A stretch of 64,000 bases of DNA from Syntrophales bacterium (GTDB lineage Bacteria; Desulfobacterota; Syntrophia; Syntrophales; PHBD01). Both the position numbers and the translations under genes were made by a program. Location of the stretch: contig OY764159.1 of the NCBI GenBank assembly GCA_963668175.1, forward strand, positions 3,520,001 through 3,584,000. Direction: 5' to 3'. The notes under the pieces are model-generated. The model saw only the letters and a list, made by a program, of their open reading frames with translations. It was not told the DNA's origin and made no database searches. The first letter of the stretch is position 1. Each line of letters starts with the position of its first letter. Shown piece after piece: positions 37,200 through 58,762 of this stretch.

Positions 37200-37230
37200 G
37201 GCGGCGACGTTTTCCGGAAAGGATAGAGAC

Positions 37231-37995
37231 ATGAATTACGAAAACATTCAGTTCGCGGTGAGCGGGGCGACGGCCGTTTTGATGCTGAACCGTCCGAAGG
37301 CGATGAACGCCCTGAACCGCGCGCTTGTGGACGAACTGGACCATGCCGTGGACCGGATCGCGAACGACCCGTCCATCGCGGCGGTTGTCCTCTCGGGCGA
37401 GAAGAACTTCGCGGCGGGGGCGGACATCACGTCGATGGTGGAGATGGACCCGGAAGCGGCGAAGGCGTTTGCCTTCACGCCGACGTATCAGAAGATCGAA
37501 GAGCTGGCAAAGCCGACGATTGCCGCGATATCGGGCTTTGCCCTGGGAGGCGGCCTGGAGCTGGCCCTGGCGTGCGACATCCGGATCGCCGGTCCCGATG
37601 CGAAGCTTGCCTTCCCCGAGATCAATATAGGGATATTCCCCGGCGCCGGGGGGACGCAGCGTCTGCCCCGGCTGGTGGGACCTGCCCGGGCGAAGGAGCT
37701 GATCTTCCTGGGGACGACGCTCGACGCCCAGAAGGCGCTCGAATACGGCCTCGTGAACAGCATCGCGGACGATCCGCTGGACGCGGCCATGAAGATGGCG
37801 TTGAAGCTGGCGGGGAAGCCCGCCGTGGCCCTGGCGCGCGCGAAGGAATGCATCAACATCGCCTCGGAGTCGGGCCTTAAGGCGGGACTGAAAGCCGAGG
37901 CGGAGAAATGGGGCAGCCTCTTTACGACGGCGGACCAGAAGGAAGGCATGCGGGCCTTCCTGGAGAAGAGGAAACCGGTCTACAAGGGTCAATGA
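37231..37995 (+). CDS. Enoyl-CoA hydratase (crotonase)
   Basis: LNRPKAMNAL, FAAGADI, ALGGGLELA, PEINIGIFPGAGGTQRL. Confidence 0.93.
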   Translation: MNYENIQFAVSGATAVLMLNRPKAMNALNRALVDELDHAVDRIANDPSIAAVVLSGEKNFAAGADITSMVEMDPEAAKAFAFTPTYQKIEELAKPTIAAISGFALGGGLELALACDIRIAGPDAKLAFPEINIGIFPGAGGTQRLPRLVGPARAKELIFLGTTLDAQKALEYGLVNSIADDPLDAAMKMALKLAGKPAVALARAKECINIASESGLKAGLKAEAEKWGSLFTTADQKEGMRAFLEKRKPVYKGQ

Positions 37996-38011
37996 TTGGA
38001 AAGGAGCATCT

Positions 38012-39193: not shown

Positions 39194-39213
39194 CCGAAAC
39201 CAGGAGGCACGAT

Positions 39214-40668: not shown

Positions 40669-40690
40669 AGCGTTAAAGGAGAAGTAAGTT

Positions 40691-41986
40691 ATGGAAAAGA
40701 CGAAATCTGGGGCTCTTTCCGACGTCACGGTACTCGATTTTTCGTGGGTTCTGGCGGGTCCGCACGCGACGAAAACGCTGGCCGACATGGGTGCCAACGT
40801 CATCAAGGTCGAACGCTACGAAGCCGGCGCCAATGAGCGATGGCAGAATCTCCGCGTGGAGAAGGACGGCGTCATACAGAGTTCCTATCATATCAACGTC
40901 AACCGAGGAAAAAAGAGCATCTGTATAGATCTCAAGAATCCCCGCGGTTTCAAGATCGTCCAGGAACTCATTAAGAAGAGCGATCTTTTGATTGAAAACT
41001 TCGCCCCCGGCGTCATGGAGCGGCTGAAGCTGGATTATGCATCGGTGAAGAAGATCAAGCCGGACATCATTTATTGCTCCATTTCGTGCTTCGGGCACTG
41101 GGGACCGTTCAGCAGCAAGCCCGGTTACGACATCATCGCCCAGGCGGCCAGCGGCTGGGTGGGACGGAGTACGCCGCCCATCATGGCTGCCGTCTCCATC
41201 GGCGACACCACCGCGGCCATGCATGCCTGTACGGCTATGCTGGCGGCCCTGCATCACAAGATCGTAACGGGCGAGGGTCAGAACATCGACATCTCCATGG
41301 TGGACTGCCTGTATTCCCTCCACGAACATGCGCTTCCCTGGTACTGGGCGAGCGAAACCGCCGGGGAGCCGGTCTTGATGGCTAAAACCGGTCAAACGAT
41401 CGTATCTTCCGCTCCGTACGGGATTTATAACGGCAAAAACGGTCATATCGCCGTCGCCAGCATGTCGGAAAACCGCTGGCTGCCGCTGATCGACTTAATG
41501 GGGCCGGATGCGGCCTGGATCAAGGATGACCCGAGGTTCAAGGACGTTCCGACACGCAGCCTTCCGGAAAATACCGCCATCATCCACGAGGTCGTCGATA
41601 AATGGGTTATGTCACAGGACTCGGTGGAAGAGGCCGAACGCAAGCTTGATGCCGCCGGTATCCCCTGTTCCCGTGTGAAGGAGCTGAAGGAACTGGCCAC
41701 CGACGATCCCCATATTAATGCCCGCGAGATGAGCCCCAGGGTCTTTCAGCCTTTCCTCGGCCGCATGAGGATGTTCGGCAGCCCCCTGAAATTCTCCGAG
41801 ACGCCCTCAGAGGTCAGGGGATACGCCCCGTTCCTGGGAGAGCATAACAAAGAGATCCTTTCGCTGTACCTCCGTTATTCGCCGGAGGAGATAGAGTCTC
41901 TTTATAAGGAGAAAATTCTCTATGAAGCGCCGGAAGTGAAACGCCTTCCAGGGGAATTGAAAAAGAACGCAGAGCGGAAAGGATAA
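40691..41986 (+). CDS. Class III CoA-transferase (CaiB/BaiF family), paralogue of 12601-13869
   Basis: VLAGPHATKTLADMGANVIKVE, NRGKKSI, SIGD, APFLGEH. Confidence 0.92.
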   Translation: MEKTKSGALSDVTVLDFSWVLAGPHATKTLADMGANVIKVERYEAGANERWQNLRVEKDGVIQSSYHINVNRGKKSICIDLKNPRGFKIVQELIKKSDLLIENFAPGVMERLKLDYASVKKIKPDIIYCSISCFGHWGPFSSKPGYDIIAQAASGWVGRSTPPIMAAVSIGDTTAAMHACTAMLAALHHKIVTGEGQNIDISMVDCLYSLHEHALPWYWASETAGEPVLMAKTGQTIVSSAPYGIYNGKNGHIAVASMSENRWLPLIDLMGPDAAWIKDDPRFKDVPTRSLPENTAIIHEVVDKWVMSQDSVEEAERKLDAAGIPCSRVKELKELATDDPHINAREMSPRVFQPFLGRMRMFGSPLKFSETPSEVRGYAPFLGEHNKEILSLYLRYSPEEIESLYKEKILYEAPEVKRLPGELKKNAERKG

Positions 41987-44812: not shown

Positions 44813-45817
44813 TCAGGAGAAAAGCGCTGTCAGGATGGCCCAGAGACCGGCGGACAGCGTACCGGCAATAGGGATGGTCAGGATCCAGGCCCAGACGATG
44901 TTCCCGGCCACGCCCCAACGGACGGCCGATATCCTTTTCGTTGATCCGACCCCCATGATGGCTCCGGTAATGGTATGCGTCGTACTCACGGGAATGCCGG
45001 CAAGGGAGGCGCCGATGATCGATATGGCCGCAGCCGTCTCCGCGCAGAAACCGCCCATGGGTTGGAGCTTGGTGATCTTCGTTCCCATCGTTTTGACAAT
45101 CCGCCATCCGCCCGACATGGTGCCCAGGGCGATGACCGTATAGCAGAGAATGACAACCCAGAAGGGAATATGAAAGACCGGCCCCAGATGGCCGCTGCTG
45201 AAAAGAACAAGGGCGATGATGCCCATCGTCTTCTGCGCATCGTTCATTCCATGGCTGATGCTGTAGATGGCGGCGGAAAGCATTTGCAGTTTTTTGAAGA
45301 TGTTGTTCGACCGGGTAACGTTGCTGCGCCTGGACAGATTCAGAATGATGACCATCATCACAATGCCGAGAAACAAACCGACCATGGGCGAAATGACGAT
45401 GAACGCCGATGTCTTGATGACGCCTTTCCAGACGAGAACGTCCGCCCCGCCCTTCATCAGTCCGGCGCCGATAAGGCCGCCGATCAGGGCGTGGGACGAA
45501 CTGCTGGGAAGACCGAACCACCAGGTAATCAGATTCCAGATGATGGCCCCTCCCAGCGCGGCCACCAGCAGTATATTGTCGACGATGGCCGTATTGACGA
45601 TGCCGGTGCCCACCGTCTTGGCGACCTGGACGTCGAACAGGAAGACGGCCACAAAATTGAAAAAGGCCGCCCAGAGAACAGCCTGCCGCGGTTTCAGGAC
45701 CTGGGTCGAGACGATGGTCGCAATGGAGTTGGCGGAATCGTGAAAACCGTTGATGAAATCGAAAATCAAGGCAAGCACGATGATGAAGATGACAATGGCC
45801 AGGGTTGTGCTTATCAT
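44813..45817 (-). CDS. pit: Inorganic phosphate transporter (PiT family)
   Basis: NGFHDSANSIAT, GLPSSSSHAL, HGMNDAQK, GIPVSTTH. Confidence 0.93.
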   Translation of the reverse strand: MISTTLAIVIFIIVLALIFDFINGFHDSANSIATIVSTQVLKPRQAVLWAAFFNFVAVFLFDVQVAKTVGTGIVNTAIVDNILLVAALGGAIIWNLITWWFGLPSSSSHALIGGLIGAGLMKGGADVLVWKGVIKTSAFIVISPMVGLFLGIVMMVIILNLSRRSNVTRSNNIFKKLQMLSAAIYSISHGMNDAQKTMGIIALVLFSSGHLGPVFHIPFWVVILCYTVIALGTMSGGWRIVKTMGTKITKLQPMGGFCAETAAAISIIGASLAGIPVSTTHTITGAIMGVGSTKRISAVRWGVAGNIVWAWILTIPIAGTLSAGLWAILTALFS

Positions 45818-45822
45818 ATGGA

Positions 45823-46554
45823 TTATTCTTCTATTTCGGTTTTATCGGTCTCGGTGTCCGGGGGCAGGTCCCTGGTGATGGACCAGGCATTGAAGATACC
45901 GAAGAGGACACCGGCGACAACGAGGAAGAGCAAAAATGCGGAAAAACTCTTGTAGGCTTCCATTTGCGTCTTGGCCAGGGTTTCCGTGGCCTTCATCCTT
46001 TCATCGGCCTGTGCTTTCATTTTAGCGACGATGGCATCTATCTGCTCCGTAGGCTCCCGGTCTATACCCCGGACGCTCAGATCCACGCGCCGAGCGGTTA
46101 AGGGATCGGAACCGCGGTATTGCTTAAGGGCCTCGCGGTACTCCCTGCCGAGCCTTTCGTGGTTCGTGATCGCCGAAGGAAGCTCCGGGACGGAGAGTCC
46201 CGTCGTCTTCGTCATGGCCGCAAGAGTCTGCAGGGATTCGCCGACCAGCCGGTCTTCTTCATTGAAGGCCCTGAGATGCCGTTCGTAAAAGTCCTTGTCG
46301 TATCCCCGCAGGAGAATGTTCTTCCATTCCTGGACTTGCTTCTTGAAATGGACTTCCGCCAGACGGGCGGTGTCCGTGGCAAGCATCATGGCCTGTCCCT
46401 CCGTGACGCTTCGGTGCAGGCGGTTGTTTGTCTCCGAAATGGCAATGACGCCGTACAAACCGATAACGACGGTCAGAACGGTAAATATACCGACGGTGAT
46501 GACCACCCGTCGCCTGACGGGAATGTCCTGGAAGAATGTATTCGGTTCTTTCAT
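45823..46554 (-). CDS. Two-TM membrane protein with an MCP-type helical sensor domain and no signalling domain
   Basis: TM, then VHFKKQVQEWKNILLRG..VRGIDREPT, then TM and a short acidic tail; start set at MKEPN. Confidence 0.7.
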   Translation of the reverse strand: MKEPNTFFQDIPVRRRVVITVGIFTVLTVVIGLYGVIAISETNNRLHRSVTEGQAMMLATDTARLAEVHFKKQVQEWKNILLRGYDKDFYERHLRAFNEEDRLVGESLQTLAAMTKTTGLSVPELPSAITNHERLGREYREALKQYRGSDPLTARRVDLSVRGIDREPTEQIDAIVAKMKAQADERMKATETLAKTQMEAYKSFSAFLLFLVVAGVLFGIFNAWSITRDLPPDTETDKTEIEE

Positions 46555-46756: not shown

Positions 46757-46812
46757 GATTCATGGAAAATTCACGATACCGTCATCAAATTGCAACCTGG
46801 CTTCGATATCAT
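46757..46812 (+). promoter_or_regulatory. Pho-box-like array B with -10 element
   Basis: GATTCAT-4-AATTCAC-4-CCGTCAT-4-TTGCAAC (46757-46796), then 10 nt and TATCAT (46807-46812). Confidence 0.65.
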
Positions 46813-46839
46813 TGGGCCAAATTCGGGAAAGGAGAAGCA

Positions 46840-49299
46840 ATGAGCCGAAGCGAGGCGAATTCAGGTTTCTATCTTCGGAACATAGATCACATTCAGGAGT
46901 CGCCGCAGTCCTTGAACCGGATCGTAGGGGCGCTTCACATCCGGACAGACGGTAACAATATCGACTGCCGTACCCTCCCCTTTGCCCCGGGGGATACGAC
47001 GGCGGGAAGCGAGGCGGAATTACAGGCCGCCGTTATCGGACAAAAGACCAATGTCGATCTCCCGTTGATCATCGAACAATCCAATTATTACGCCAATATC
47101 ATCCGCCGGGCGGCGGCCGGCGACACGACCAGAAGGGTCATCACGGACCTGGAAAAGTTTCTTCACACCAATAACGAGCAGGTCTGGGAAAACAGTTGGG
47201 TCCGGTTCCCCCGTTCCGTCTTAAACGGGTTCGCTGAGGCGACTTTCAGGCACGATCTTCTTGCCGACAAGGAAAACCCGTCGCAGGGTGTCCGGACGGA
47301 TGCCGATAAATTCATGTTTACCCGGCAGGAGCGCGAACATATCCGTGTCCCCGTCAGCTATCTCCTGAAGCTCGCTCTGGCCGACGTCCTGGGCGCGGAG
47401 AAAGACCTTCCCCGTTCCATATGGCATTCAGGCCGGGAGCTTATGGACCATTTCCTCAACGACAACACGTCGCCGGAGACCTTCTCTTTTTACGTAACGC
47501 CCCTGAAGGCGGAGGCGGGACAGGGACAGCCGCTGGCAAGGGAAACGGGAAAGCGGTTTCTCCTGACGCAGCTTCTCACCCTGTACGCCAACGAGAAGTT
47601 CCATCTATACGCAACGGGGCAGAAAGCGGCCATCTTCTATTCGCCCCATCCTCCCGTACGGCAGCAGAGGCTCAACAACTGCATCTCCGATGCGTTCTAT
47701 CGCGAGCTTTTCATGAGCCCCTGTCTTTCCGGGTGGACCCGCGGCGAGGCCAAGCAGGACTACATGCATCTATGTCACCGGGTCTTGAGCCGCAGCCAAT
47801 TGAATACCTTGATCAAGCTGCGGGAGGCGGGGATCATCACAAGCAATCTCGTCGCTCTGCCGAATACTTCCAATGTCAGTCTCGCCAACAACGGGACCCA
47901 CATCAGCCTCGGCAGCCGCAAGCTCGGCGAGGCCATGAAAGACAGGACGTCGGGATTTAACAGGGCTTCCGAGAAATATGCCGGAGACCTCGTCGTGAAG
48001 ATGGTGGAACATTTCCTCCCCCTCTTCGTCGGCAGTTACAGCGCGGCCCCGTACCGTCTCGACTACCTGGATTTTCATCCCGAAAAGGTACTGGGGTTCC
48101 TCCCCCATGAACTGGATTACACCCATCTGCGCATGATCTGGCGGCGGTGGCAGAAAAAGGCGGGCATCAAGATCATGGGCCGTCCCACGACGCCTTTCGG
48201 TCCCATCTGGCTCGACCGCATGATCAAGACGGTTTTCGACCTGAAGGGCGATTACGTCCCCGATTACCGTCTGGTCGATTATCTGGTCGCCCTGATGAGC
48301 ACGGAAAAGAGTCCGGCCCTCGACGGCCGCCTGCACAACAGCGATCGCCTCAAGGCGGACCTCGCCGATCTGGGCGTTTTCGACAACAAAATGTCCCTTT
48401 ATCTCTTCGAGAAACTCCGGGAACATGAAGTCATGGGATTTTCCGGATTCGAGGCGCGCCATTACAGCATCTTCTGCCGCTTCGAAGAGGACATGGGGCG
48501 GGCAGCCGCACTGCAGAATCTACTCTATTGCCTGGCCTTCCAGTACATCGCCAAGGGACTCCTGACTCACGATCACATCCCGGACAATCCCGTCGTGGAA
48601 AGCGAACGGAGGCAGATTATCTTCGGGGCGGCTATCGGCATCCCCACGTTCTTCGTTCGCCAGGACACCCAGAATCTCTTCCTGAAGAGAATTGTTTCCG
48701 GAGCGTCCCGTAATCGCCACAGCCGACGGTATCCGGGATATACCCGCGTGCATAACGACGAATACCGGCGGGCGCTTCTTCGGATTTTGCGGGAGGATGC
48801 CGCCGAGTTGATCGAGATGTTCGGCATGCAGGAGGTGATCGACGATCTGTCCCGGCGCCTGGACGATCCCAAGCATTTTTCGGTTGCCGGGCGTCTCAGC
48901 CGTGCCGTCTGCGAAGAAGCAGGCGTCAAATCCCCTCTGCAGGCGGAGGCAGCCGAATTCAACCGGGCCGCCGAGAAGTACTATCGGGAAAAACTGCGTG
49001 CCGGCCACATCGAGGAGAGTCTGCGGTTCTTCGAAGAGGACCTGCTGAATCTGCACCGCGCGGAAGGTCTGCGCCGCGAGACGATCCGTAACGCCGTCCG
49101 TTTTATCCTCCAGGACGGAGATGACCGTCAATTCTTCTCGAAAGTAAGCAAGTCCATAAGTGCTGAGACCGTGACCGAAGAAGACTTGAGAAAACTGATC
49201 TATCTTTTGATTTTAACGATTCATGAGGAAAAATCACACTATGTATGTACAAAAGAACCAGGCAGCACAGGAACACCCCATGCTGCATCACTATGTTGA
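46840..49299 (+). CDS. Large hypothetical protein with GCS2/glutamine-synthetase-fold carboxylate-amine ligase motifs
   Basis: TAGSEAELQ, NDNTSPE, NNGTHISLG, HFLPLFVGSYSAAPY, GFEARH in the expected order; AGGAGA RBS before ATG 46840. The CDS is secure; the function is inferred. Confidence 0.65.
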   Translation: MSRSEANSGFYLRNIDHIQESPQSLNRIVGALHIRTDGNNIDCRTLPFAPGDTTAGSEAELQAAVIGQKTNVDLPLIIEQSNYYANIIRRAAAGDTTRRVITDLEKFLHTNNEQVWENSWVRFPRSVLNGFAEATFRHDLLADKENPSQGVRTDADKFMFTRQEREHIRVPVSYLLKLALADVLGAEKDLPRSIWHSGRELMDHFLNDNTSPETFSFYVTPLKAEAGQGQPLARETGKRFLLTQLLTLYANEKFHLYATGQKAAIFYSPHPPVRQQRLNNCISDAFYRELFMSPCLSGWTRGEAKQDYMHLCHRVLSRSQLNTLIKLREAGIITSNLVALPNTSNVSLANNGTHISLGSRKLGEAMKDRTSGFNRASEKYAGDLVVKMVEHFLPLFVGSYSAAPYRLDYLDFHPEKVLGFLPHELDYTHLRMIWRRWQKKAGIKIMGRPTTPFGPIWLDRMIKTVFDLKGDYVPDYRLVDYLVALMSTEKSPALDGRLHNSDRLKADLADLGVFDNKMSLYLFEKLREHEVMGFSGFEARHYSIFCRFEEDMGRAAALQNLLYCLAFQYIAKGLLTHDHIPDNPVVESERRQIIFGAAIGIPTFFVRQDTQNLFLKRIVSGASRNRHSRRYPGYTRVHNDEYRRALLRILREDAAELIEMFGMQEVIDDLSRRLDDPKHFSVAGRLSRAVCEEAGVKSPLQAEAAEFNRAAEKYYREKLRAGHIEESLRFFEEDLLNLHRAEGLRRETIRNAVRFILQDGDDRQFFSKVSKSISAETVTEEDLRKLIYLLILTIHEEKSHYVCTKEPGSTGTPHAASLC

Positions 49300-50296
49300 A
49301 AGAAACAGCCGCGCAATCCGGCAGGAACGGTTTCGCGGCCACCGCGTCATTCCTTTTATCTACTCCCGCGTCCGGGAGAATTCGCCTCTGTTGTTCCGTC
49401 TTCTGACCAGCCGGAGGATATGCTCCCTCGTCGGTTTTTTGAGTTTCAGCGAGTTCATCAATGAAAGGCTGACCGATCCGCATCGTTTCATGCGGGAAAC
49501 GGGGGTGGACGCGCGGGAATGCCTTGACCTGCCCGTTTCGCTGAATACGCCGAAGAAAATTTTTGAAAGGAAAATCCGTTACTGGGATTGCCGTCCGATG
49601 CCCCACGATCCGGCGGCCGTCGTATCGCCCGCGGATTCGCGAGTGCTTGTGGGATCGTTCGACGAATCGTCAAGCCTTCTTCTCAAGGGAAAATTCTTCG
49701 ATTACGAAGAACTCCTGGGCGTCAACAGGAGACTCTGGCTTGACGCCTTCCGGGGAGGAGATTACGCCGTGTTCCGGCTGACCCCGGATAAATACCACTA
49801 CAACCATACGCCGGTAGCCGGAATTGTGAGAGATCACTACGAAATAGACGGCCGGTATCATGCGTGTCATCCCGCGGCGGTCGTTTCCATGATTACGCCG
49901 TATTCAAAGAACAAACGGGTCGTCACGGTCATCGACACGGACGTGCCGGGAGGCACCGGCCTGGGGCTCGTCGCCATGGTGGAAGTCGTCGCGATGATGA
50001 TCGGCGATATCGTCCAGTGCTACAGCGAATCGCAATATGACCGTCCCGTGTTTCTCTACGACGGTCTTTTTATGAAAAAAGGACAACCGAAGAGCCTGTT
50101 TCGCCCTGGAAGCAGCACGGTCGTCCTGATGTTTCAGAAAAATCGGGTGAGATTTTCCGACGACATCGTCTGGAACATGAGCCGACCGGACGCGGCGTCG
50201 ATTTTTTCCCGCGGTTTCGATCAACCGCTGGTGGAAACGGACGTTATGCTCCGCAGCCTTATCGGAACGGCGAGATTCCAGAAGCCGAACGCCTAG
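49280..50296 (+). CDS. Phosphatidylserine decarboxylase family proenzyme
   Basis: IFERKIR, VSPADSR, FRLTPDKYHYNHTP, KNKR, FRPGSSTVVL; start uncertain (49223/49241/49280). Confidence 0.85.
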   Translation: MLHHYVERNSRAIRQERFRGHRVIPFIYSRVRENSPLLFRLLTSRRICSLVGFLSFSEFINERLTDPHRFMRETGVDARECLDLPVSLNTPKKIFERKIRYWDCRPMPHDPAAVVSPADSRVLVGSFDESSSLLLKGKFFDYEELLGVNRRLWLDAFRGGDYAVFRLTPDKYHYNHTPVAGIVRDHYEIDGRYHACHPAAVVSMITPYSKNKRVVTVIDTDVPGGTGLGLVAMVEVVAMMIGDIVQCYSESQYDRPVFLYDGLFMKKGQPKSLFRPGSSTVVLMFQKNRVRFSDDIVWNMSRPDAASIFSRGFDQPLVETDVMLRSLIGTARFQKPNA

Positions 50297-50366
50297 CGTG
50301 CATCGCGGAAACGGACGGAACAGAAATAATCCATTCACTTTGAGGGAACTTCCCGGGAGGTATCTG

Positions 50367-50807
50367 ATGAGACAGCTGGAATCGTTAATGGATGGGCGGA
50401 AAACGAAGTCCAGAGAAACGGCCATGCACAGTAAGGCCCACGCGGCGATCAGAACGGAGCTTGTCGGGAGGTTGCGCCAGTTGCGCGGCATGGCTTCCCA
50501 CACGGTCAGCGGCATGAAGAACGACAGGGAGAATCCCGCCGATATCATCGACCTCGCTTCGCGGGAGGAGTCCCGGCACATCGAGCTTGCCATCCGGGGC
50601 CGAGAGAGGGAAACCATCCAGGACATCGAGAACGCCATTGCCCGTATCGATTCGGGCGAATTCGGCATATGCGAGGAGTGTAGCGGGGCAATTACGATCG
50701 GACGGCTCCTGGCCAAACCGACAACGACATACTGCCGGACATGCCAGGAGAAGCGTGAAAGGGCTTTCCGGGGACAGGGCCAGCCTGAAATGTTCCGCGC
50801 GGCGTAA
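50367..50807 (+). CDS. DksA/TraR family C4 zinc-finger protein
   Basis: PADIIDLAS (DxxDxA), AIARI..GEFGICEEC..I..RL.AKPTTTYCRTCQ; GGAGG RBS. Confidence 0.88.
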   Translation: MRQLESLMDGRKTKSRETAMHSKAHAAIRTELVGRLRQLRGMASHTVSGMKNDRENPADIIDLASREESRHIELAIRGRERETIQDIENAIARIDSGEFGICEECSGAITIGRLLAKPTTTYCRTCQEKRERAFRGQGQPEMFRAA

Positions 50808-50820
50808 TACCAGGAACATC

Positions 50821-52323
50821 ATGAACGATTCACGTCTCTGGATGAAGAAACTGGCGGACCATTACCGCAGCGTCACCCGCCGCTTTCCCGAAGCAAAACA
50901 CATGATCGTCTTCGACATCGACGGCACGATCCTCGATTCGCGATACATGATCCGCCGCACCCTTCAGTCCTTCGACCGCCATCACGGGACGGAATTCTTC
51001 AGAGACCTCTCCGTTGCCGACATCACCTTCCCCGAAACAGTCCTTGCAGACATCCTGGTATCCCTCGGGCTTCCGGGAGACCGGCAGCGGCAAATCGTCG
51101 CCTGGTATACGGAACACGGCTGGTCGGCCGAATCGGTGCTGGAAGCCCATCGTCCGTTTATCGGCGTGATGGAGGTCATCCGGTGGTTCCAGATTCAGCC
51201 CAATACCCTCGTCGGACTCAACTCCGGCCGGTCCGAGTCGGTCAGGGCGGAAACCCTTTGCTGTCTCAACAAGATCGGAAGGCGCTTCAAGGTCAACTTC
51301 ACGAACGATCTCCTCTATCTGAACCGCAACGGCTGGGACGGCGGGGTCATCGAATCCAAGCTGGAAGGCATGCTTCATTTCCAAAAGGCCGGCTACCGGC
51401 TGTTCGCCTTTGTGGACAACGAGCCGGAGAATCTCGAGGCCGTCGCCTCCATGGACAGGCGGCAGGAGATGATGCTCCTTCACGCCGACACGATCTTTCG
51501 TTCGCAAAGGATGCTCGTACCGAATCGGGCCGTCAGCGGCGACCGTTACGACGTGGCCGAGCTCTTCGCCGAGCATTCGCTGCCCGGCCACATCCAGTTC
51601 GTGTGGCACTCGATCAGCGGCAGGGATAATTTCCTGCGGTTTCTCGCATCCAACGTGCAGTGGGCCGAATTTCCCGTCCGCCTCGGCTACGACGGCAACC
51701 ATCTCGTCATCCGCAACGATTCATACGATGGCGATCTTCCGGAGTACGAAAGTGATGTCCTCTATTTGAAGAAACTTCTTCCCGAGCTTTCCGCAAAGGA
51801 AAAATCGATCAAGATCGACATGAAGGAAGAGACTTTTCCCGTCGATCAACTCATCGATCTTCTGAAACGTTGCGGCTACGACGACAGCCGTCTGTGGTTC
51901 AACGGCAAGATCGAAGCCTTGAAGGAAAAAGGGTTTCGGAAGCTGGCGGCTGCATATCCCCGGGCGATTCTCCAATGCCCCGTCGACGACCTGGTGCCCC
52001 TGATGCTCGGCAGCCCGGCGACCGCCCTGTCCGTCCTCGATACGTTCCGGTCGTGGGGCATTAACCGGGTTTCCCTGAGCTGGAAGACACCGTTCCTGGA
52101 AGCCGCTCTGGAAAAGCTGGAGCGCTGGGGCTTCGAAGTCAATATCTACAATGTGCCCGACCTGGAATCGTTTCTTTCGGCCGTCCTGATGCTTCCCCAA
52201 TCGATTACTTCGGATTTCAACTTTACGCCCTGGCTTCAGGAATCAACAAAATTCCGGGGAAGACATACCGCAAAGGAGTGCCATCTAAGCGGCATAATGA
52301 CACATCCCGGGACAGGAGGCTGA
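50821..52323 (+). CDS. HAD-superfamily phosphatase fused to a PLC/GDPD-like TIM-barrel domain
   Basis: FDIDGT, NSGR, K, VDNEPEN; C-terminal half FVWHS, WAEFPV, IKIDMK, LWFNG. Confidence 0.72.
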   Translation: MNDSRLWMKKLADHYRSVTRRFPEAKHMIVFDIDGTILDSRYMIRRTLQSFDRHHGTEFFRDLSVADITFPETVLADILVSLGLPGDRQRQIVAWYTEHGWSAESVLEAHRPFIGVMEVIRWFQIQPNTLVGLNSGRSESVRAETLCCLNKIGRRFKVNFTNDLLYLNRNGWDGGVIESKLEGMLHFQKAGYRLFAFVDNEPENLEAVASMDRRQEMMLLHADTIFRSQRMLVPNRAVSGDRYDVAELFAEHSLPGHIQFVWHSISGRDNFLRFLASNVQWAEFPVRLGYDGNHLVIRNDSYDGDLPEYESDVLYLKKLLPELSAKEKSIKIDMKEETFPVDQLIDLLKRCGYDDSRLWFNGKIEALKEKGFRKLAAAYPRAILQCPVDDLVPLMLGSPATALSVLDTFRSWGINRVSLSWKTPFLEAALEKLERWGFEVNIYNVPDLESFLSAVLMLPQSITSDFNFTPWLQESTKFRGRHTAKECHLSGIMTHPGTGG

Positions 52324-53624
52324 TGATCAAGACCTTTATCCTCGACACCAACGTACTTCTCCACAACCCCGACGCCCTTTTCGCCTTTGAAGAAAACCGG
52401 GTGATCGTCCCTTTTGTCGTCGTTGAGGAGATCGATTCGCAGAAAATGAGGCAGGACGAGATCGGGAGGAACGCCAGGCTCGTTTCCCGGAATCTCGACG
52501 GCATGAGGGCCCATGGGCATCTTGCCGAAGGCGTGCGGCTTCCCTCCGGGGGAGTCGTTCAGATCGAACTGAACCATCAGAACCTGGACGCATTCCCTGT
52601 GGTTCTGGACAGGGGTAAGTACGACAACCGCATTCTCGCCGTCGCCTGCCATTTCCATAAGGAAAACCCGGGCAGAACGCTCCTGGTAACGAAAGATCTT
52701 AATCTAAGAGTGAAGGCCGATGTCCTCGGCATTCCCGCAGAGGATCTCTTCAAAGACACCGTCGATTACCCGCAGCTCTACGAGGGCGTCGGTCACCTGA
52801 ACGGAACGGCGGAAGACATGAATGCCCTCTATCGGGAAGGAGAACTGGCGCTGAGCGGCAGCGAATGCGCATGCCCCCATCAGTTCTTCGTTCTGAAGGA
52901 CCCGGACAGTCCTTCCCAATCGGCCCTGTGCCGCCACCTGGACGGCACTCTGTACCCTCTGAACTATGCCGATGCGGTCAACTACGGAGTCAAAGCCAGG
53001 AACAAGGAACAGAAATTCGCCCTGGAACTCCTGATGAACGACGATATCCGGGTCGTCACCCTGGTGGGCAGGGCCGGAACGGGAAAGACCCTGCTGGCGC
53101 TGGCGGCAGGCCTGACGAAGGTGGTCGAGCACAAGGTCTATCGGAGGCTCCTTGTCACCCGTCCGGTAGTCCCCATCGGCAACGATTTGGGCTATCTCCC
53201 CGGTTCCAAAGAAGACAAGCTCCGGCCCTGGATGCAGCCGATCTTCGATAATCTGGAATTTCTCCACGCCGACATTAAGCACCGCCGGCAGACGATCGAG
53301 CAGCTCATCGAAAACGGCACGCTGGAAATGGAGGCCCTGACCTATATCCGGGGAAGAAGCATTCCCAAACAGTTCATTGTCTGCGACGAAGCGCAGAATC
53401 TCACACCGGTGATGATTAAGACGCTCGTTACACGCGTCGGGGAAAAATCCAAGATCGTCTTCACCGGCGACCCGGAACAGATCGATAATCCTTATCTGAA
53501 CGCGGGCAGCAACGGTCTGACGTATCTCGTGGAAAAGATGAAAGGCGAGGCGCTGGCCGGCCATATCATCCTGAATAAGGGTGAGCGCTCCGCCGTTGCC
53601 GAACTCGGGGCGAAAATACTTTGA
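52323..53624 (+). CDS. PIN-PhoH fusion protein (PhoH2/YlaK-like)
   Basis: LDTNVLL, DNRIL, TKDLNLR; GRAGTGKT, LGYLPG, YIRGRS, DEAQN, TGDPEQID; TGATG coupling to the HAD gene. Confidence 0.92.
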   Translation: MIKTFILDTNVLLHNPDALFAFEENRVIVPFVVVEEIDSQKMRQDEIGRNARLVSRNLDGMRAHGHLAEGVRLPSGGVVQIELNHQNLDAFPVVLDRGKYDNRILAVACHFHKENPGRTLLVTKDLNLRVKADVLGIPAEDLFKDTVDYPQLYEGVGHLNGTAEDMNALYREGELALSGSECACPHQFFVLKDPDSPSQSALCRHLDGTLYPLNYADAVNYGVKARNKEQKFALELLMNDDIRVVTLVGRAGTGKTLLALAAGLTKVVEHKVYRRLLVTRPVVPIGNDLGYLPGSKEDKLRPWMQPIFDNLEFLHADIKHRRQTIEQLIENGTLEMEALTYIRGRSIPKQFIVCDEAQNLTPVMIKTLVTRVGEKSKIVFTGDPEQIDNPYLNAGSNGLTYLVEKMKGEALAGHIILNKGERSAVAELGAKIL

Positions 53625-53642
53625 TTATGCAAGGAGGCTTCA

Positions 53643-54698
53643 TTGGATCATAACGGACTGGTTCTGTTCATACTGGCGCTTGGCCTGGCCCTGCTCTTTT
53701 CATGGGGGTTCAGGACATTGCCCCGGGAAGGCTGGCAGGTCATGGCCTGCATTCCCCGGGAAAGAAGGGGCGACGGCCTGTGGAACGGCGTGAATTTCAC
53801 CTATTACGGCTTTTTCAATGCCACGGCGAACGTTATGGCGGTTCTGCTTTTGATCGTCCTCCTCAGGTCGGTGCAGGTCGCTCCGGCGTTCATCTTCATG
53901 CTGGCGGCCGGCGGCCTCGGAATCTGCATTCCGGCGTCGAAACTGCTCGCCCGCTGGGTGGAAGGAAAGCCCCACACATTCACCGTGGGCGGCGCTTCGT
54001 TTGCGGGTATTCTCATCCTGCCGTGGACGGTGTTCATCCTCGACACATTCTTCCGGCGATTTTTGGGCGGTCATCTTCCCGTCATGACCGCCATGGCCGC
54101 GATCACGATCGCCTACAGCCTGGGAGAAGGTGTCGGGCGGCTGGCCTGCATCAGCTTCGGATGCTGTTACGGGAAACCCCTTTCCGCCGTCCATCCGCTC
54201 CTGAGAAGAATCTTCGCTAAATATTATTTCGTCTTCGACGGGCCGACCAAGAAGATCTCTTATGCCCACCATCTTGACGGGGAACCCGTGGTCCCGGTGC
54301 AAGCTCTCACTTCCGTTCTTTACACGGCCGCCGCTCTTCTGGGATCGTATCTTTTCCTTGCCGGCCTGCATGCCGCCGCCTTCGTAAGTACCGTGGCAGT
54401 CACCCAGTTATGGCGCCTTGTCTCCGAGTTTCTCAGGGCCGATTACCGGGGTGGCCGGGTCTTCTCCGCCTACCAGATCATGGCCCTCGCAGCGGTCGGT
54501 TACACCGTGTTCCTGATGTCGATCTTTCCGGAACCGGCGGCCCGCGGGGCCGACATCGTTACCGGTCTCGCATCAACCTGGAACCCGGTTGTCATCATAC
54601 TTCTCCAATTATTGTGGGCGGCTATCTATATCTACACGGGAAGGAGCCGCGTCACGGCCAGCGTCGTTTCGCTCTGTGTCGTCAGGGATAAGACTTGA
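53643..54698 (+). CDS. Atypical prolipoprotein diacylglyceryl transferase (Lgt)-like membrane protein
   Basis: Multi-TM; TYYG, GRLACISFGCCYG, PVQ, WRLVSEFLRAD, SAYQ; TTG start with AGGAGG RBS. Confidence 0.75.
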   Translation: MDHNGLVLFILALGLALLFSWGFRTLPREGWQVMACIPRERRGDGLWNGVNFTYYGFFNATANVMAVLLLIVLLRSVQVAPAFIFMLAAGGLGICIPASKLLARWVEGKPHTFTVGGASFAGILILPWTVFILDTFFRRFLGGHLPVMTAMAAITIAYSLGEGVGRLACISFGCCYGKPLSAVHPLLRRIFAKYYFVFDGPTKKISYAHHLDGEPVVPVQALTSVLYTAAALLGSYLFLAGLHAAAFVSTVAVTQLWRLVSEFLRADYRGGRVFSAYQIMALAAVGYTVFLMSIFPEPAARGADIVTGLASTWNPVVIILLQLLWAAIYIYTGRSRVTASVVSLCVVRDKT

Positions 54699-54817
54699 CG
54701 AAGCTTCGGGATTCCGAATATTATCATAGAGGATGAAGGCGTTCCATCTGTTCATTTGTTCATTCGCATTCACAAGAAGGAACCAAGGAAATGCCTCACC
54801 GAGATGCTTTGCCGTGA

Positions 54818-55786
54818 ATGATCCTATCGCTTATCATAACCCGCAGATATGTGCGGACGGCGGCGGCCGTTCTGGCCGTTTTTGTCGTTTCCGTCTTTGC
54901 AGCTCCGGACATTCCATCCTCCTTTTCCTCCCGCCTGCCGTATGCGGCCTTGCTGGCGAAAGAAAAGAATCCCGCTCACCGCTGGTTTAAAAAAAAGAGA
55001 TTGACGAAGCTCCGGGGCGTCGTTCTCGTCGTACACGGCCTGAACCTGAGGCCGGAGCGCATGAAGGCCGTCATCCGCGTCCTGAACGAGGCCGGAATGG
55101 ACGTTCTTAACCTGTCCCTTCACGGTCACGGGGAAAATTATCTGCCCATGGCCGGATTGTCGGATAAAGAGGCCCGCCTGGAATCTTTCCGGCGTGTCAG
55201 TTACACCCTGTGGGCCGGAGAGCTTCGCGACGCCTATCGCAAGGCGCGGGAACGGGCCGATGAGAAAGGCGTTCCCGTCTATTTTGCGGGTTTCTCGCTC
55301 GGGGGGCTCCTGGGGTGTGATTTGCTGGCATCGGATCGCGACGTGTCGTTCCGGCGCATGATCCTCTTTGCCCCGGCTCTCAACGTCATGATCGAGGCGC
55401 ACTTGCTGAAGACCTTGACCCCCTTCCCCAATCTGGTCATCGACAGCCTGTCGCCGCCCTCTTACCGGACCAACGACGGGACGCCCATGGCCGCCTATCG
55501 GGCCCTGTTCGAGGCCATCGCCCATCTTAAAGAGCAGAGTACCGACAGGCTCGATATTCCCACCCTGGTCTTCATCGACGAAAACGACGAATTGATCGAC
55601 GGCCGAAACTTGACGGAGATCGCCTGGAAAGGCCTCACGCGGTGGCGGATCGTGATGCTTCACAGAGACAAAGACGATCCCGGCCCGCAGACACTCTCTC
55701 ACCACCTGATCATCGACGAGGCCGGCACGGGAAGGGAGGCGTGGAAACGAGTCGAGGCGGAGATAAGGCGGCATGTCCGCGAATAA
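54818..55786 (+). CDS. Alpha/beta hydrolase (lysophospholipase/esterase-like), probably exported
   Basis: Hydrophobic N-terminus, VVHGLN, LHGHG, nucleophile elbow GFSLGG, DEL, HH. Confidence 0.82.
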   Translation: MILSLIITRRYVRTAAAVLAVFVVSVFAAPDIPSSFSSRLPYAALLAKEKNPAHRWFKKKRLTKLRGVVLVVHGLNLRPERMKAVIRVLNEAGMDVLNLSLHGHGENYLPMAGLSDKEARLESFRRVSYTLWAGELRDAYRKARERADEKGVPVYFAGFSLGGLLGCDLLASDRDVSFRRMILFAPALNVMIEAHLLKTLTPFPNLVIDSLSPPSYRTNDGTPMAAYRALFEAIAHLKEQSTDRLDIPTLVFIDENDELIDGRNLTEIAWKGLTRWRIVMLHRDKDDPGPQTLSHHLIIDEAGTGREAWKRVEAEIRRHVRE

Positions 55787-55882: not shown

Positions 55883-56272
55883 TCAGGCGCAACGTGCAAT
55901 CAGGGAAAGCACCCTGGTTTCGATCAGGCCCCGGACACGCCGGAAAGTATCGTCATCCATATGAACAGGGTCAGGGATGGACCACTCCTCCCGCTGACCG
56001 GCGGGTATCAACCGGCAGACATCTTCGCATCCCATCGTTATGACGTAGTCGTAGAAATCGGCCGGCAGATCGGCAAGGGACTTGGTAAATTGCCTGTTGA
56101 GATCGCAGCCGATTTCATTCATCATGGCGACGGTTCTGGGATGAACCGCTCGTGACGGCGTCGATCCGGCACTGAAGGCAGCAATCCTGTCCCATCCGTA
56201 GTTTCGCGCGAAGGCCTCCGCCATCTGGCTCCGGCAGGCATTTCCCCGGCAGACGAACAACACTTTTTTCAT
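55883..56272 (-). CDS. arsC: Arsenate reductase / LMW phosphatase family
   Basis: LFVCRGNACRSQMAE, SAGS, ITMGCEDVC, WSIPDP; start set at MKKVLF. Confidence 0.82.
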   Translation of the reverse strand: MKKVLFVCRGNACRSQMAEAFARNYGWDRIAAFSAGSTPSRAVHPRTVAMMNEIGCDLNRQFTKSLADLPADFYDYVITMGCEDVCRLIPAGQREEWSIPDPVHMDDDTFRRVRGLIETRVLSLIARCA

Positions 56273-56343
56273 GGTTTGCCTCACGCGATCCGGAAACCGT
56301 CTTCTTCGTTTCCGGAGAAAGGTTGTCCCGAACATCCATGTTT

Positions 56344-58662
56344 TCATCTCTGCCGCCGGTCGCGAACGTAGACACTGCCCGGCTTCGATTTCGCATATTG
56401 TTTTAACTGGGCCATCTTGGCCGAGATCTCTTTCATGTCCTTTCCGGTTCCGGCCGTGCAGTCGAGAACGGCCATGGAAACGGATACAAAAGGAAACCAT
56501 TTTTCATTGCCGGACCGGTCCAGGGCGAAGATGCCGCCTGCCGCCCTGTCCTCGGAGCTGTAAAGACGGTCGATATGCTTGTCGAAGCTTTCGATGACCT
56601 TCCGGCAAAGTGTATCCACATGCTCGTCCGTGGTGAAAATCAGGAAATCGTCTCCGCCGATATGGCTCAGAAAATCATCTTCGCCGCCGTGATGCTCCAC
56701 GGTCTCTTTCAGAAGGTTGGCCGTATAGAGAATCACTTCATCGCCTTTTTCGAAGCCGTACTTGTCATTGTACGATTTAAAATGATCCAGATCGATAAAG
56801 ATGATACTGAATGCTGCTCCCTGGGAGGCCCGACGCAGATGTTCCTGCTCGATGGCGATATTGCCGGGGAGCCCCGTGAGCGGATTCGCCCCTTTGGCAA
56901 GTTCAACCCTGATTCTGGTCATGGTGTCGAGGAGCGTCTGGACGGAAACGACCCCCTGCATGAGGCCGGTTCTCGTGACGATGATGTTGTCGTAGAGCTT
57001 GATTTTATTCCGGCTCATGGCGGCCTGCGAAACCAGTTCAACAGGGGCGCAGTGGTCGACAATCAGCGGCAGCTTATCCATAATCCTGGCAATAGGTTTT
57101 TCGTAATAGAGGGCGACGCCGTACTTGCGGCCGAGGTGCCTGTCCAGGTGCTGCCTCATGACGAGACCGCACGGTTTTCCGGCTTCGACGACGACAATGC
57201 CGGCCAGGGAGTTGTCGGCGTCAAAAATGGTCTTGACGTCTTTAACCGGCGTCTGCTCCCCTATGGTAATCGCTTCATCCACAATATCTCCGATAGGAAA
57301 GGCATGCTTGAGGAGACGATAGCGGCCGTTATTGACGAAGTGGAGCGTCTTCAGATACGTTTCCCGCGGCGCAGCCTGTTTGGACCGGAACGGTTTACCG
57401 AAGAAATATCCCTGACCGTAATGAACGCCGATATTGGCCAGGGCGGCCAGTTCGCCTTCCTCTTCGACGCCTTCGGCGATGATTTCGCAACCGATTTTCT
57501 CGGAGAAGGTTACAAATGTTTCCATCAGGGCCGTCTTGACCCTGTCTTTATGAATACCCCTGACCAGGGACATGTCGATCTTGATATAGTCGGGCCGGAT
57601 TTCAGCGATGGACTGAAGCGAGGAAAAACCGGAGCCCACGTCGTCCAGGGCCACGAGGAATCCCTGGTCCCGGTAGTTGGCAAGCGTCTTGTTCAAAGCG
57701 TTGAAATCGGTAATGTGATGCCGTTCCGTAATCTCGAAAACGACGTTTTTCGGTTTCATGCCTAAGGCATCGATTAGTCCAAGGGTTTCATCCTCGACGA
57801 AGTGAAGGTCGTTGACGGTCTTCGGATGGATATTGATGAAGACCTTCTGGTCCGGGCCAACCTCACCCAGACCGTTGAGGGCCGATTCGCGGCATATTTT
57901 CTCCAATGGAAAGAGGAGTCCTTCTTCCTCGGCAAAAGAAAAGATAACGTCAGGCCGGTGGAAATAACTATCCTCCGGTCCGCGCACCAAAGCTTCCCAG
58001 CCGAGGACAGCGGCGGAACGGATGGAGATGATGGGCTGGTAGACCGAATGAAACCCGCCCTCTTTGAGTAAACGTTTAAACTCGGGAAGATAGCGAACGG
58101 ATTGCATGTTGATGAACCCCTTGGCAATGGCATAGGCCTTCTTTGTGGCGTTATACAGCATAAGTTCCGTATTGTTCCTCTTGTCCGTGATGACGGCATG
58201 ACCGATATGAATATCCATGTCCCGCCCCGTCAGCAAACGGAACTCCTCGTTCATGGTGTCCTTGATCTGCCTGCGGTAGGCAACGGCCGAGTCTTCCAAT
58301 GTGCCCAGCGTCGGCGCCCGATCGGCTTCCGTGATAAGAATGAAATCTTCGCCCCAGAGGCTTTCAGCCGCGAGAATGCTTACATGGCGCCGGGAGAGGA
58401 TCCCCATGCCGTGAATCAGCGTATCCTTGAAAAGGCCGATAATACGATCGGCAATGTCCATTCCCGCAGCGTTTTCTATTTCGTGAAGCCGGGCGATATC
58501 GAAATAGAATAAGACGACACACTTCCCTTCCTCCAGACTGGCCGACATTTTCCGAAGTAAGCCAGGATCATGGCGGATATTGCTTCGCCCCAGACCTTGG
58601 ATCAGCCCATTGCCGGAGTTGATGTTATGTATATGGATTCCTTCCGCAAATGTATCTTGCAT
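56344..58662 (-). CDS. Cyclic-di-GMP enzyme: degenerate GGDEF-like, EAL, CBS and GGDEF domains
   Basis: N-terminal FDI..WGEDF; YQPI, WEALVR, FEITE, LDDVGSG, IKID, AEGVE, QGY; CBS pair; NPLTGLP, DLDHFKSYND, IGGDDF. Confidence 0.9.
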   Translation of the reverse strand: MQDTFAEGIHIHNINSGNGLIQGLGRSNIRHDPGLLRKMSASLEEGKCVVLFYFDIARLHEIENAAGMDIADRIIGLFKDTLIHGMGILSRRHVSILAAESLWGEDFILITEADRAPTLGTLEDSAVAYRRQIKDTMNEEFRLLTGRDMDIHIGHAVITDKRNNTELMLYNATKKAYAIAKGFINMQSVRYLPEFKRLLKEGGFHSVYQPIISIRSAAVLGWEALVRGPEDSYFHRPDVIFSFAEEEGLLFPLEKICRESALNGLGEVGPDQKVFINIHPKTVNDLHFVEDETLGLIDALGMKPKNVVFEITERHHITDFNALNKTLANYRDQGFLVALDDVGSGFSSLQSIAEIRPDYIKIDMSLVRGIHKDRVKTALMETFVTFSEKIGCEIIAEGVEEEGELAALANIGVHYGQGYFFGKPFRSKQAAPRETYLKTLHFVNNGRYRLLKHAFPIGDIVDEAITIGEQTPVKDVKTIFDADNSLAGIVVVEAGKPCGLVMRQHLDRHLGRKYGVALYYEKPIARIMDKLPLIVDHCAPVELVSQAAMSRNKIKLYDNIIVTRTGLMQGVVSVQTLLDTMTRIRVELAKGANPLTGLPGNIAIEQEHLRRASQGAAFSIIFIDLDHFKSYNDKYGFEKGDEVILYTANLLKETVEHHGGEDDFLSHIGGDDFLIFTTDEHVDTLCRKVIESFDKHIDRLYSSEDRAAGGIFALDRSGNEKWFPFVSVSMAVLDCTAGTGKDMKEISAKMAQLKQYAKSKPGSVYVRDRRQR

Positions 58663-58722
58663 CGCCTCATCCTTTTATGTCTGTTCTTGTTATACGGCGT
58701 GGTTGATTTATGACCGATGAAT

Positions 58723-58762
58723 ATTGCAGGCATGTGACGGCGGAATGATAGTTTGATGAATT
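58723..58762 (-). promoter_or_regulatory. Pho-box-like array C
   Basis: Minus strand AATTCAT-4-CTATCAT-4-CCGTCAC-4-CTGCAAT (11-bp period), about 60 nt upstream of the EAL-CBS-GGDEF gene. Confidence 0.62.

Follow-up and report, generated by a model that had tools for sequence, protein, structure and literature searches.

In a 64,000-nucleotide stretch of the genome of a Syntrophales bacterium (GenBank assembly GCA_963668175.1, contig OY764159.1, positions 3,520,001 to 3,584,000 of the forward strand; hereafter the window), a six-gene operon on the + strand contains a conserved trio of genes, which encode a ligase-fold protein of 819 amino acids (aa; O1), a non-canonical decarboxylase of the phosphatidylserine decarboxylase (PSD) family (O2) and a divergent membrane protein of the Lgt family (O6). 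The reading favoured here, with restrained confidence, is that the trio makes a sulfur-containing aminolipid of the kind tentatively named N-butyramide cysteine glycerols (BACys), that the operon is under PhoB control and that a phosphatidylglycerol-type lipid is the source; the steps, the substrates and the regulation alike are what we infer. The broader proposition, that the trio serves Pho-regulated remodelling of lipid head groups, whether the product is BACys or a different lipid, is likely.

A conserved three-gene core within a six-gene operon

The operon (46840-54698, + strand) consists of six co-oriented genes, as an initial annotation of this DNA had described, which overlap or are separated by gaps of at most ~70 nt:

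46840-49299, + strand: O1, soluble protein of 819 aa with no Pfam family and a predicted glutamate-cysteine-ligase / carboxylate-amine-ligase fold
49280-50296, + strand: O2, non-canonical PSD-family decarboxylase of the pyruvoyl type
50367-50807, + strand: O3, DksA/TraR-type zinc-finger protein, accessory
50821-52323, + strand: O4, HAD-type phosphatase domain fused to a second, C-terminal domain, possibly a PLC/GDPD-type phosphodiesterase, accessory
52323-53624, + strand: O5, PIN-PhoH protein (PhoH2-type), accessory
53643-54698, + strand: O6, polytopic Lgt-family membrane protein with a remodelled signature

Several of these gene starts are set shorter than the longest open reading frames (ORFs). 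Coding begins with the ATG of O1 at 46840, which is preceded by AGGAGA, and not at 46757, the start given earlier, which points to the repeat array described below, two bases further on. An 851-aa ORF for O1, opening at 46744, was rejected because it would cross the promoter and because an identical 819-aa database entry and the lengths of the orthologues favour 46840. Orthologues also set the start of O2 at 49280, giving a 20-nt overlap with O1, and that of O4, since their alignments with the long ORF begin at its residue 85. The ORF of O3 opens at 50298; the ATG at 50367, behind GGGAGG, is the better ribosome site and most likely the translation start. The ATG of O5 has one base in common with the stop codon of O4 and is preceded by AGGAGG.

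A single scan of species-representative genomes returned at least 600 matching stretches, at least 573 of them confirmed, from which 80 loci were kept. By tblastn, O2 is found in 76 and O6 in 71 of the 80 loci, the dksA-type gene (O3) in 31, O4 in 12 and the PIN-PhoH gene (O5) in 11, while genes of the flanks recur in 8 (arsC-type), 7 (hydrolase), 5 (pit) and 2 loci (the two-transmembrane, or two-TM, protein). Synteny was counted on the 68 loci with at least 2.6 kb of sequence downstream of O1: O2 abuts O1 in 66, O6 is found no more than 6 kb away and on the same strand in 64, and both arrangements occur together in 64, so that the ligase-psd-lgt order, which the initial annotation had put forward for checking, is conserved. 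The gap between O2 and O6 is shorter than 250 nt in 40 of these 64 loci, and larger gaps are usually filled by dksA. On these synteny and occurrence counts, O1, O2 and O6 are the conserved core, O3, O4 and O5 are optional passengers, and the six genes do not form the single conserved unit that had been supposed. Exceptions to the order comprise one locus with O6 and O4 upstream of O1 (L004), one in which no O6 was found (L054), one with neither O2 nor O6 within 10 kb of O1 (L015) and one, from Citrifermentans bremense, with an insertion of ~5 kb between O1 and O2 (L053).

The loci come from several phyla; going by record titles, the 80 stem, among others, from Syntrophales, Smithella, Syntrophorhabdus, Syntrophobacter, Desulfomonile and Geobacteraceae, and further from anammox Planctomycetota, Nitrospinae, Acidobacteria and NC10. 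Cultured organisms that appear as candidate carriers in the genome scan and a homologue search are Syntrophus buswellii DM-2, Citrifermentans bremense R1, Geomesophilobacter sediminis, Trichlorobacter lovleyi and Geobacter pelophilus. In a FastTree tree of O1 (72 loci and the window), the window protein groups with Syntrophales. Two bins labelled Clostridiaceae (L042) and Heliomicrobium (L058) carry O1 sequences that fall within the Smithella clade and beside the Acidobacteria clade, respectively, placements that could stem from mis-binning or from gene transfer.

O1 has the predicted fold of glutamate-cysteine ligases

O1 has at least 2949 homologues (753 representative clusters at E <=0.001), and the 120 that were listed, at 57-100 % identity, are without exception unnamed or ‘hypothetical’. 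The protein matches no family in Pfam or NCBIfam even at E values up to 10, no PDB sequence either by phmmer or with a 45-sequence profile, and nothing usable among the named clusters of the Atlas. A first AlphaFold2 (AF2) model, built from 27 close homologues, had a pLDDT of 67.5, and the fold search made with it was not significant and gave a weak hint at most. A second model, built from 45 diverse sequences with identities down to 31 %, reached a pLDDT of 90.2 and a pTM of 0.92.

When this second model was compared with the PDB by Foldseek, every match with a probability above 0.6 was GshF, GshA, YbdK, PafA or Dop; GshF, GshA and YbdK were matched at probabilities of 0.98-1.00 and listed matches outside this superfamily at 0.08 or less. 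The E values are 7.3e-4 and 8.7e-4 for GshF and 1.1e-3 for the gamma-glutamylcysteine synthetase of E. coli (TM-score to the target 0.49); YbdK is matched with a TM-score to the target of 0.54, and the glutamate-cysteine ligases of Francisella, yeast and plants are also among the matches. The structures concerned (GshA, 1v4g and 2d32; GshF, 3ln6 and 3ln7; YbdK, 1r8g; PafA and Dop) are the best high-probability structural matches of O1, which differs from them in being ~300 residues longer than GshA, in its helical C-terminal region of ~180 aa, and in having neither a detectable sequence relationship to the superfamily nor a Pfam or NCBIfam model. Among the conserved residues, E58 and E60 are kept in at least 90 % of sequences and H354, E538 and R540 are invariant, all on predicted beta-strands; more generally, the invariant E, H, E-x-R and RR residues sit on predicted strands and helices. 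Membership of O1 in the glutamate-cysteine-ligase / carboxylate-amine-ligase superfamily is supported at the level of the modelled fold, and the ‘GCS-fold ligase’ of the initial annotation stands as a statement about fold but not about sequence.

O2 and O6: a PSD-family decarboxylase and a divergent Lgt-like protein

O2 matches PS_Dcarbxylase (PF02666) at 7e-39, with 134 bits against a cut-off of 22, and falls below every NCBIfam equivalog cut-off for PSD (133.4 versus 371 bits for NF001941 and 88 versus 111.75 bits for TIGR00163). Among PDB sequences, it matches an E. coli PSD structure at 9.8e-14 and, weakly, a PsiD-like tryptophan decarboxylase at 1.7e-4, the latter match being a sign that the PSD family accepts non-lipid substrates. 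In an alignment of 16 members with E. coli Psd, residues D119, H173, H176 and G277-S-S279-T280 are invariant and fall on the PAD, YHRVH and LGST motifs of the E. coli enzyme. Since O2 thus keeps the catalytic Asp, both His residues and a Gly-Ser-(Ser)-Thr cleavage site, it is likely an active pyruvoyl decarboxylase, and the PSD-like decarboxylase recognised in the initial annotation is upheld by family and by residues.

The catalytic Asp/His residues and the autocleavage site are those found in E. coli Psd (7cnw, 6l06) and in the PsiD-type enzyme (9jer). With E. coli Psd, O2 shares ~28 % identity; at its N-terminus it carries ~90 additional, conserved aa, its cleavage motif has one Ser more, and its C-terminal chain is a different one. 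Its proposed substrate would differ as well, being a gamma-glutamyl or S-lipid cysteine moiety rather than phosphatidylserine (PS). Judged by sequence, it is not a canonical PSD orthologue.

The LGT match of the window’s O6 (2e-05, 24.5 bits) lies just below the cut-off of 24.9 bits, and 29 of its 32 relatives match PF01790 at E <=0.01, the best at 9.5e-14. With the NCBIfam model NF000778, O6 scores 21.8 bits against an equivalog cut-off of 334, and a search of PDB sequences with the O6 family profile found no Lgt chain. The protein has six to seven hydrophobic segments and, like the Lgt of E. coli (b2828, PF01790), is a polytopic membrane protein. Its family signature is GEGxGRLACISFGCCYG, where we take that of Lgt to be G-R-x-G-N-x-x-N-x-E-x-x-G, and C169, C174, C175, R166, R258, E262 and R265 are invariant. 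An hhalign alignment with E. coli Lgt, of low confidence (probability 1.9 %), pairs R143 with R166, G154 with G177 and R239/E243/R246 with R258/E262/R265, which brings the GR...G signatures and the (F/W)RxxxExxR motifs of the two proteins into register. By its signature and equivalog score O6 does not appear to be a canonical Lgt; with 29 of 32 relatives in PF01790 and the signature remodelled, ‘atypical Lgt’ was a fair label. Its proposed acceptor would likewise set it apart from Lgt, being a small molecule or a lipid and not a lipobox protein.

Pho-box-like arrays in the promoter region

The 285-bp spacer between O1 and the divergent genes contains two repeat arrays and a candidate -10 element:

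46759-46802, + strand: Pho-box-like array of four 11-bp units, TTCATG / TTCACG / GTCATC / GCAACC, facing O1; 23.2 bits
46595-46638, - strand: second Pho-box-like array, TTAACA / TTCACA / GTCACA / GCAACA, facing the two-TM protein and pit; 27.1 bits, the best of the window
46807-46812, + strand: candidate -10 hexamer TATCAT, 9 nt after the last repeat unit, picked out by reading the sequence

The + strand array is followed in order by TATCAT, AGGAGA and the ATG at 46840. The hexamer is absent from a scan for consensus promoters because it lacks a -35 hexamer, as expected for a PhoB-type promoter. The distal array faces the - strand, and the ATG of the two-TM protein (46554) follows 41 nt downstream of it; as this stronger site faces the divergent pit pair, the spacer looks like a bidirectional, Pho-controlled region.

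The arrays were scored with a tied 11-column matrix that had been refined on the upstream regions of 70 related loci, the window excluded; its unit consensus is TTAACAnAAnT, with a core of T/G-T-A/C-A-C/T, and the threshold of 11.3 bits is the 99th percentile of shuffles. On both strands of the 64-kb window only five independent sites exceed this threshold, and the top two (27.1 and 23.2 bits) are those of the O1 intergenic region, followed by one of 16.8 bits (58717-58760, - strand) and two marginal ones of 11.7 and 11.4 bits. The four-unit array upstream of the operon, which the initial annotation had pointed out, is thus beyond chance. A general repeat search did not report it, since its units are too degenerate, and Rfam has no match within the window.

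A score for which no training was used, four TTNACA units 11 bp apart, reaches at least 14 of 20 on the coding strand in 21 of 71 upstream regions of O1, compared with 24 of 1420 shuffles and none of 71 intragenic controls. A strict TGT-N8-TGT-N8-TGT pattern had been tried as well; it gave no + strand arrays in other loci and gave way to the TTNACA reading. The matrix derived upstream of O1 also matches 11 of 15 pstS promoters, which lie kilobases away from O1, versus 41 of 732 other ORFs, and the array unit resembles both the experimentally defined PhoB box of Desulfovibrio vulgaris, (c/t)GT(n)AC, and the CTGTCAT repeats of E. coli that are quoted for comparison in the same article (PMC3333781). 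The matches at pstS promoters and the agreement with the experimental PhoB box indicate that the motif is a Pho box, and the arrays recur at O1 orthologues in other genomes, where the initial annotation had proposed to look for them.

Phosphate genes are also found around the trio elsewhere. All ORFs of the 80 loci and of the 36-64 kb part of the window were clustered, and the neighbouring clusters comprise a histidine kinase (28 loci), an OmpR-type response regulator that is typically just upstream (23), a pstB-like ATPase (20), a pstC/A-like permease (20), PhoU (14), PstS (14), PsiE (5) and alkaline phosphatase (4). Two further clusters are a GT4 glycosyltransferase of 802 aa in six loci (L037:11807-14215 and five others) and an OlsF-like acyltransferase-GNAT fusion in four (L045:16996-18867 and three others); they are candidates for glycolipid and ornithine-lipid routes and form a parallel to the glucuronosyl lipids that accompany BACys in Desulfatibacillum alkenivorans.

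Two other families near the trio carry similar sites. A protein of ~443 aa without a Pfam family lies just upstream of O1 in four loci (L048:8284-9735, L042:1453-2766, L052:7182-8513 and L025:8154-9584) and is absent from the window; all four copies have a strong Pho-box-like site (15.4, 21.1, 23.6 and 29.7 bits). In the window, the third-best site (58717-58760, - strand) lies 55-98 nt upstream of the gene for an EAL-GGDEF-CBS protein (56344-58662, - strand), a family that occurs near the trio in 10 loci, where 4 of 9 genes have such a site upstream. In D. vulgaris, HD/EAL genes are among the targets of PhoB (PMC3333781), and the site upstream of the EAL-GGDEF-CBS gene suggests that phosphate status is connected with c-di-GMP.

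The predicted product has the composition of a published lipid head group

In phosphate-limited D. alkenivorans PF2803T, phosphatidylethanolamine (PE), phosphatidylglycerol (PG) and cardiolipin are almost fully replaced by glucuronosyl lipids and by new sulfur-containing aminolipids, for which the name BACys was tentatively given (Ding et al. 2024, PMC11181052). According to the text of that report, BACys is absent at sufficient phosphate and seen at low phosphate only, its head-group ion has an m/z of 205.064 (C7H13O3N2S+), and its cores are the same as those of PE and PG, namely diacyl (DAG), acyl/ether (AEG) and diether (DEG); biosynthetic genes are not named in the text (PMC11181052). Removal of CO2 from gamma-Glu-Cys (C8H14N2O5S) gives C7H14N2O3S, and the corresponding S-substituted cation, C7H13N2O3S+, computes to 205.0641, which equals the value reported for the BACys head group in that text (PMC11181052), a match of composition in which isomers are indistinguishable. 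The scheme of the initial annotation, in which a gamma-glutamyl-X head group is made, receives a diacylglyceryl group and is decarboxylated, therefore predicts the formula of a published lipid head group, while its individual steps are what we infer. BACys is, like the predicted product, free of phosphorus and contains S and N, and it comes from the same phylum as the window.

In the proposed mechanism, O1 would use ATP to ligate glutamate, through its gamma-carboxyl group, to the amino group of cysteine or of a lipid derived from cysteine, O6 would transfer the diradylglyceryl group from phosphatidylglycerol onto the thiol, forming a thioether and releasing glycerol phosphate, and O2, as a self-processing pyruvoyl enzyme, would strip one alpha-carboxylate adjacent to a free amine. 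Two orders of these steps lead to the same product formula. In the first, gamma-Glu-Cys would be S-lipidated and then decarboxylated at its glutamyl end, yielding 4-aminobutanoyl-cysteine; in the second, S-diradylglyceryl-cysteine would be decarboxylated to a cysteamine lipid, much as PS is converted to PE, and then gamma-glutamylated. That the new lipids inherit the ether/ester pattern of the cores would be accounted for by a transfer from phosphatidylglycerol already present. As to the accessory genes, O4 would free phosphate from the released glycerol phosphate, the DksA-like O3 would adjust transcription and the PIN-PhoH protein O5 RNA turnover during starvation, and they probably support the pathway. 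That O1, O2 and O6 by themselves constitute a complete and sufficient pathway for thioether-linked ‘sulfur-for-phosphorus’ glycerolipids is a more tentative claim, for which the balance falls slightly on the side of doubt.

In the literature searched, outside which lay subscription-only papers and supplements, no paper was found that ties these gene families together, to the Pho regulon or to BACys; the term ‘butyramide cysteine’ is confined to a single paper, and the aminolipid reviews examined contain no cysteine lipids.

Weighing the assignment

A number of observations weigh against the BACys assignment, beginning with the lipid itself. As published, BACys is drawn with N-butyramide on cysteine, which is an isomer of both 4-aminobutanoyl-cysteine and gamma-glutamyl-cysteamine (PMC11181052, as given in its text). 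Its only known producer, D. alkenivorans, is not among the 80 loci that were kept from at least 573 confirmed stretches, and a homologue search seeded with the one locus labelled ‘Desulfobacteraceae’ (L079) gave proteins of Geobacter and Trichlorobacter only. On the side of the enzymes, the link between O1 and the ligases is one of fold, with Foldseek E values of 7e-4 to 6e-3 and TM-scores of 0.3-0.54, and hhalign gives no significant match between O1 and the GshA of E. coli (probability 0.3 %); the acidic, His and Arg residues that the model places on beta-strands are, as putative catalytic residues, what would be expected of a ligase-type active site. In O6, the alignment with Lgt, again at a low-confidence 1.9 %, puts N146 on C169 and E151 on C174, and H103 is not kept. 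We take N146, E151 and H103 to be essential residues of Lgt. As cysteines occupy the positions of the first two in this low-confidence alignment, the chemistry of O6 may differ from that of Lgt. With respect to regulation, phoB, phoR and pst genes are all missing from the 64-kb window, the count of 45 of 70 loci that exceed the matrix threshold involves a circularity, as the matrix was trained on these same loci, and the loci behind the matrix and the motif counts are phylogenetically related to one another.

The most substantial alternative is that the trio is indeed Pho-regulated and remodels head groups, but makes some other phosphorus-free or phosphorus-poor lipid, for instance a glycerolipid with an O-linked amino acid, or an amide formed on PE or PS. 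The evidence from regulation and from membrane-lipid enzyme families serves this possibility equally well, O6 may use another acceptor and O1 other substrates, and N146 and E151 of Lgt are lost in the low-confidence alignment. It is nevertheless considered unlikely: no other reported lipid fits the logic of ligase, decarboxylase and Lgt-type transferase as exactly as C7H13N2O3S, and Lgt-family chemistry, as far as we know, targets the thiol of cysteine.

That the trio instead lipidates a peptide or protein, with O6 modifying a protein cysteine under phosphate stress and O1 and O2 maturing the substrate, is improbable, even though all characterised Lgt enzymes known to us act on proteins and the structural neighbours of O1 include PafA and Dop, the enzymes that attach Pup to proteins and take it off again. 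No conserved small ORF accompanies the trio, in which O1 and O2 overlap or abut and O2 and O6 are, as noted, mostly close together (40 of 64 loci), and we know of no PSD-family enzyme that acts on proteins. A soluble gamma-glutamyl thiol or amine, glutathione-like and serving redox or arsenate defence with O6 as a transporter-like partner, would agree with the glutamate-cysteine-ligase fold of O1 and with the arsC-type reductase 1.2 kb downstream in the window; this reading is quite improbable, given that an arsC neighbour occurs in just 8 of 80 loci, that O6 appears to belong to the Lgt family and not to a transporter family, and that the regulatory signal points to phosphate. The notion that these genomes have in O2 and O6 just their housekeeping psd and lgt, next to an unrelated O1, agrees with their Pfam families and is otherwise hardly credible in view of the far too low equivalog scores (133 versus 371 bits for O2, 21.8 versus 334 for O6), the replacement in O6, in the low-confidence alignment, of residues presumably essential in Lgt, the tight coupling of O1 to O2 (66 of 68 loci), and the patchy occurrence of the trio behind Pho boxes, whereas lgt is near-universal in bacteria.

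Accessory genes and surroundings of the operon

The three passenger genes were identified to differing degrees. O3 contains the Pfam domains DksA_N (1.6e-12) and zf-dskA_traR (7.5e-10) and scores 91.4 bits with TIGR02420, below the equivalog cut-off of 115.5. The hallmarks of DksA/TraR proteins are a coiled-coil tip motif, DxxDxA, and a C4 zinc finger; O3 carries both, as DIIDLA and CEEC...CRTC, and the earlier call of a DksA-like gene is confirmed by domains and motifs. In O5, PIN_4 (1.3e-32, residues 20-157) and PhoH (5e-50, residues 238-434) are both found by Pfam, as a PIN-PhoH protein requires, with 331 bits for NF053827 against a cut-off of 680. The HAD/phosphodiesterase fusion of the initial annotation holds in its first half: the N-terminal part of O4 is of the HAD type, with weak HAD matches in all 9 members and an invariant FDIDGT. 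The second half is weakly supported, by matches of the C-terminal part to Menorin (PF10223) in 2 of 9 members at 2.2e-4, a family that we assume to belong to the PLC/GDPD phosphodiesterase clan, and a comparison of the O4 profile with the PDB found no credible relative.

The operon is flanked by the following genes:

44813-45817, - strand: pit phosphate transporter, PHO4 2.4e-98
45823-46554, - strand: two-TM protein, weak TarH/4HB-like match (TarH 6.5e-4)
54818-55786, + strand: alpha/beta hydrolase with an N-terminal hydrophobic segment, Hydrolase_4 1.1e-15
55883-56500, - strand: arsC-type phosphatase, by Pfam/NCBIfam

The pit and arsC flanks, to which attention had been drawn initially, are both real at this locus but are not conserved (5 and 8 of 80 loci). 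The pair of two-TM protein and pit also adjoins O1 in one other locus (L052); Pit transporters are not usually regarded as Pho-induced. The alpha/beta hydrolase that follows O6 has its own sigma-70-like promoter-like site (54695-54724), belongs to a family present in 7 of 80 loci, and might be a lipase or lysophospholipase partner.

Elsewhere in the window, positions 24001-26000 have a G+C content of 0.43, compared with 0.52-0.63 in the other parts, and encode a TetR regulator and a DUF6125 protein, after which comes an MFS transporter. Several ORFs of considerable length (350-700 aa) have no Pfam match at 1e-5 and lie at 36928-40806 (- strand), 20486-24201 (+ strand) and 14114-16219 (+ strand), some of them in the most G+C-rich part of the window; they may be real genes of an unfamiliar kind or shadow ORFs of genes on the opposite strand.

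Implications for phosphorus-sparing membrane lipids

Exchanging phospholipids for lipids free of phosphorus is one of the main ways in which microbes respond to a scarcity of phosphate, and the known Pho-regulated routes use BtaAB for the betaine lipid DGTS, PlcP-Agt for glycolipids and OlsBA/OlsF for ornithine lipids. The proposed trio follows the same logic, a PhoB-controlled change from phospholipid to phosphorus-free lipid, and OlsF-like and GT4 genes are among its neighbours in 4 and 6 loci, respectively. It differs from these routes in that its enzyme families are entirely different and in that it would exchange the head group directly on phosphatidylglycerol via a thioether, whereas the known routes proceed through free diacylglycerol or the acylation of an amino acid. 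The gene sets for betaine lipids, ornithine lipids and glycolipids do not account for the sulfur aminolipids described in 2024 from a phosphate-starved sulfate reducer. For a pathway of the BACys type the trio is the best candidate, and it would represent phosphorus-sparing substitution by enzyme families not previously tied to it.

If the trio does form the complete pathway, O6 would be the first enzyme of the Lgt family to use an acceptor other than a protein, O1 would be the founder of a new ligase family of the glutamate-cysteine type, for which Pfam as yet has no model, and the head group of BACys would have to be re-read as 4-aminobutanoyl-cysteine or gamma-glutamyl-cysteamine. The BACys assignment offers a function for a large family of ‘hypothetical proteins’, the Lgt and PSD families would gain substrates, and the assignment predicts an exchange of the phosphatidylglycerol head group that releases glycerol phosphate. 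The trio would also provide a three-gene marker with which this adaptation may be traced in syntrophs, metal reducers and anammox bacteria, from genomes as well as metagenomes. As the trio is present in well over 500 species genomes, the lipid exchange could, if the complete-pathway reading holds, be a widespread and overlooked response to phosphate scarcity in anoxic habitats.

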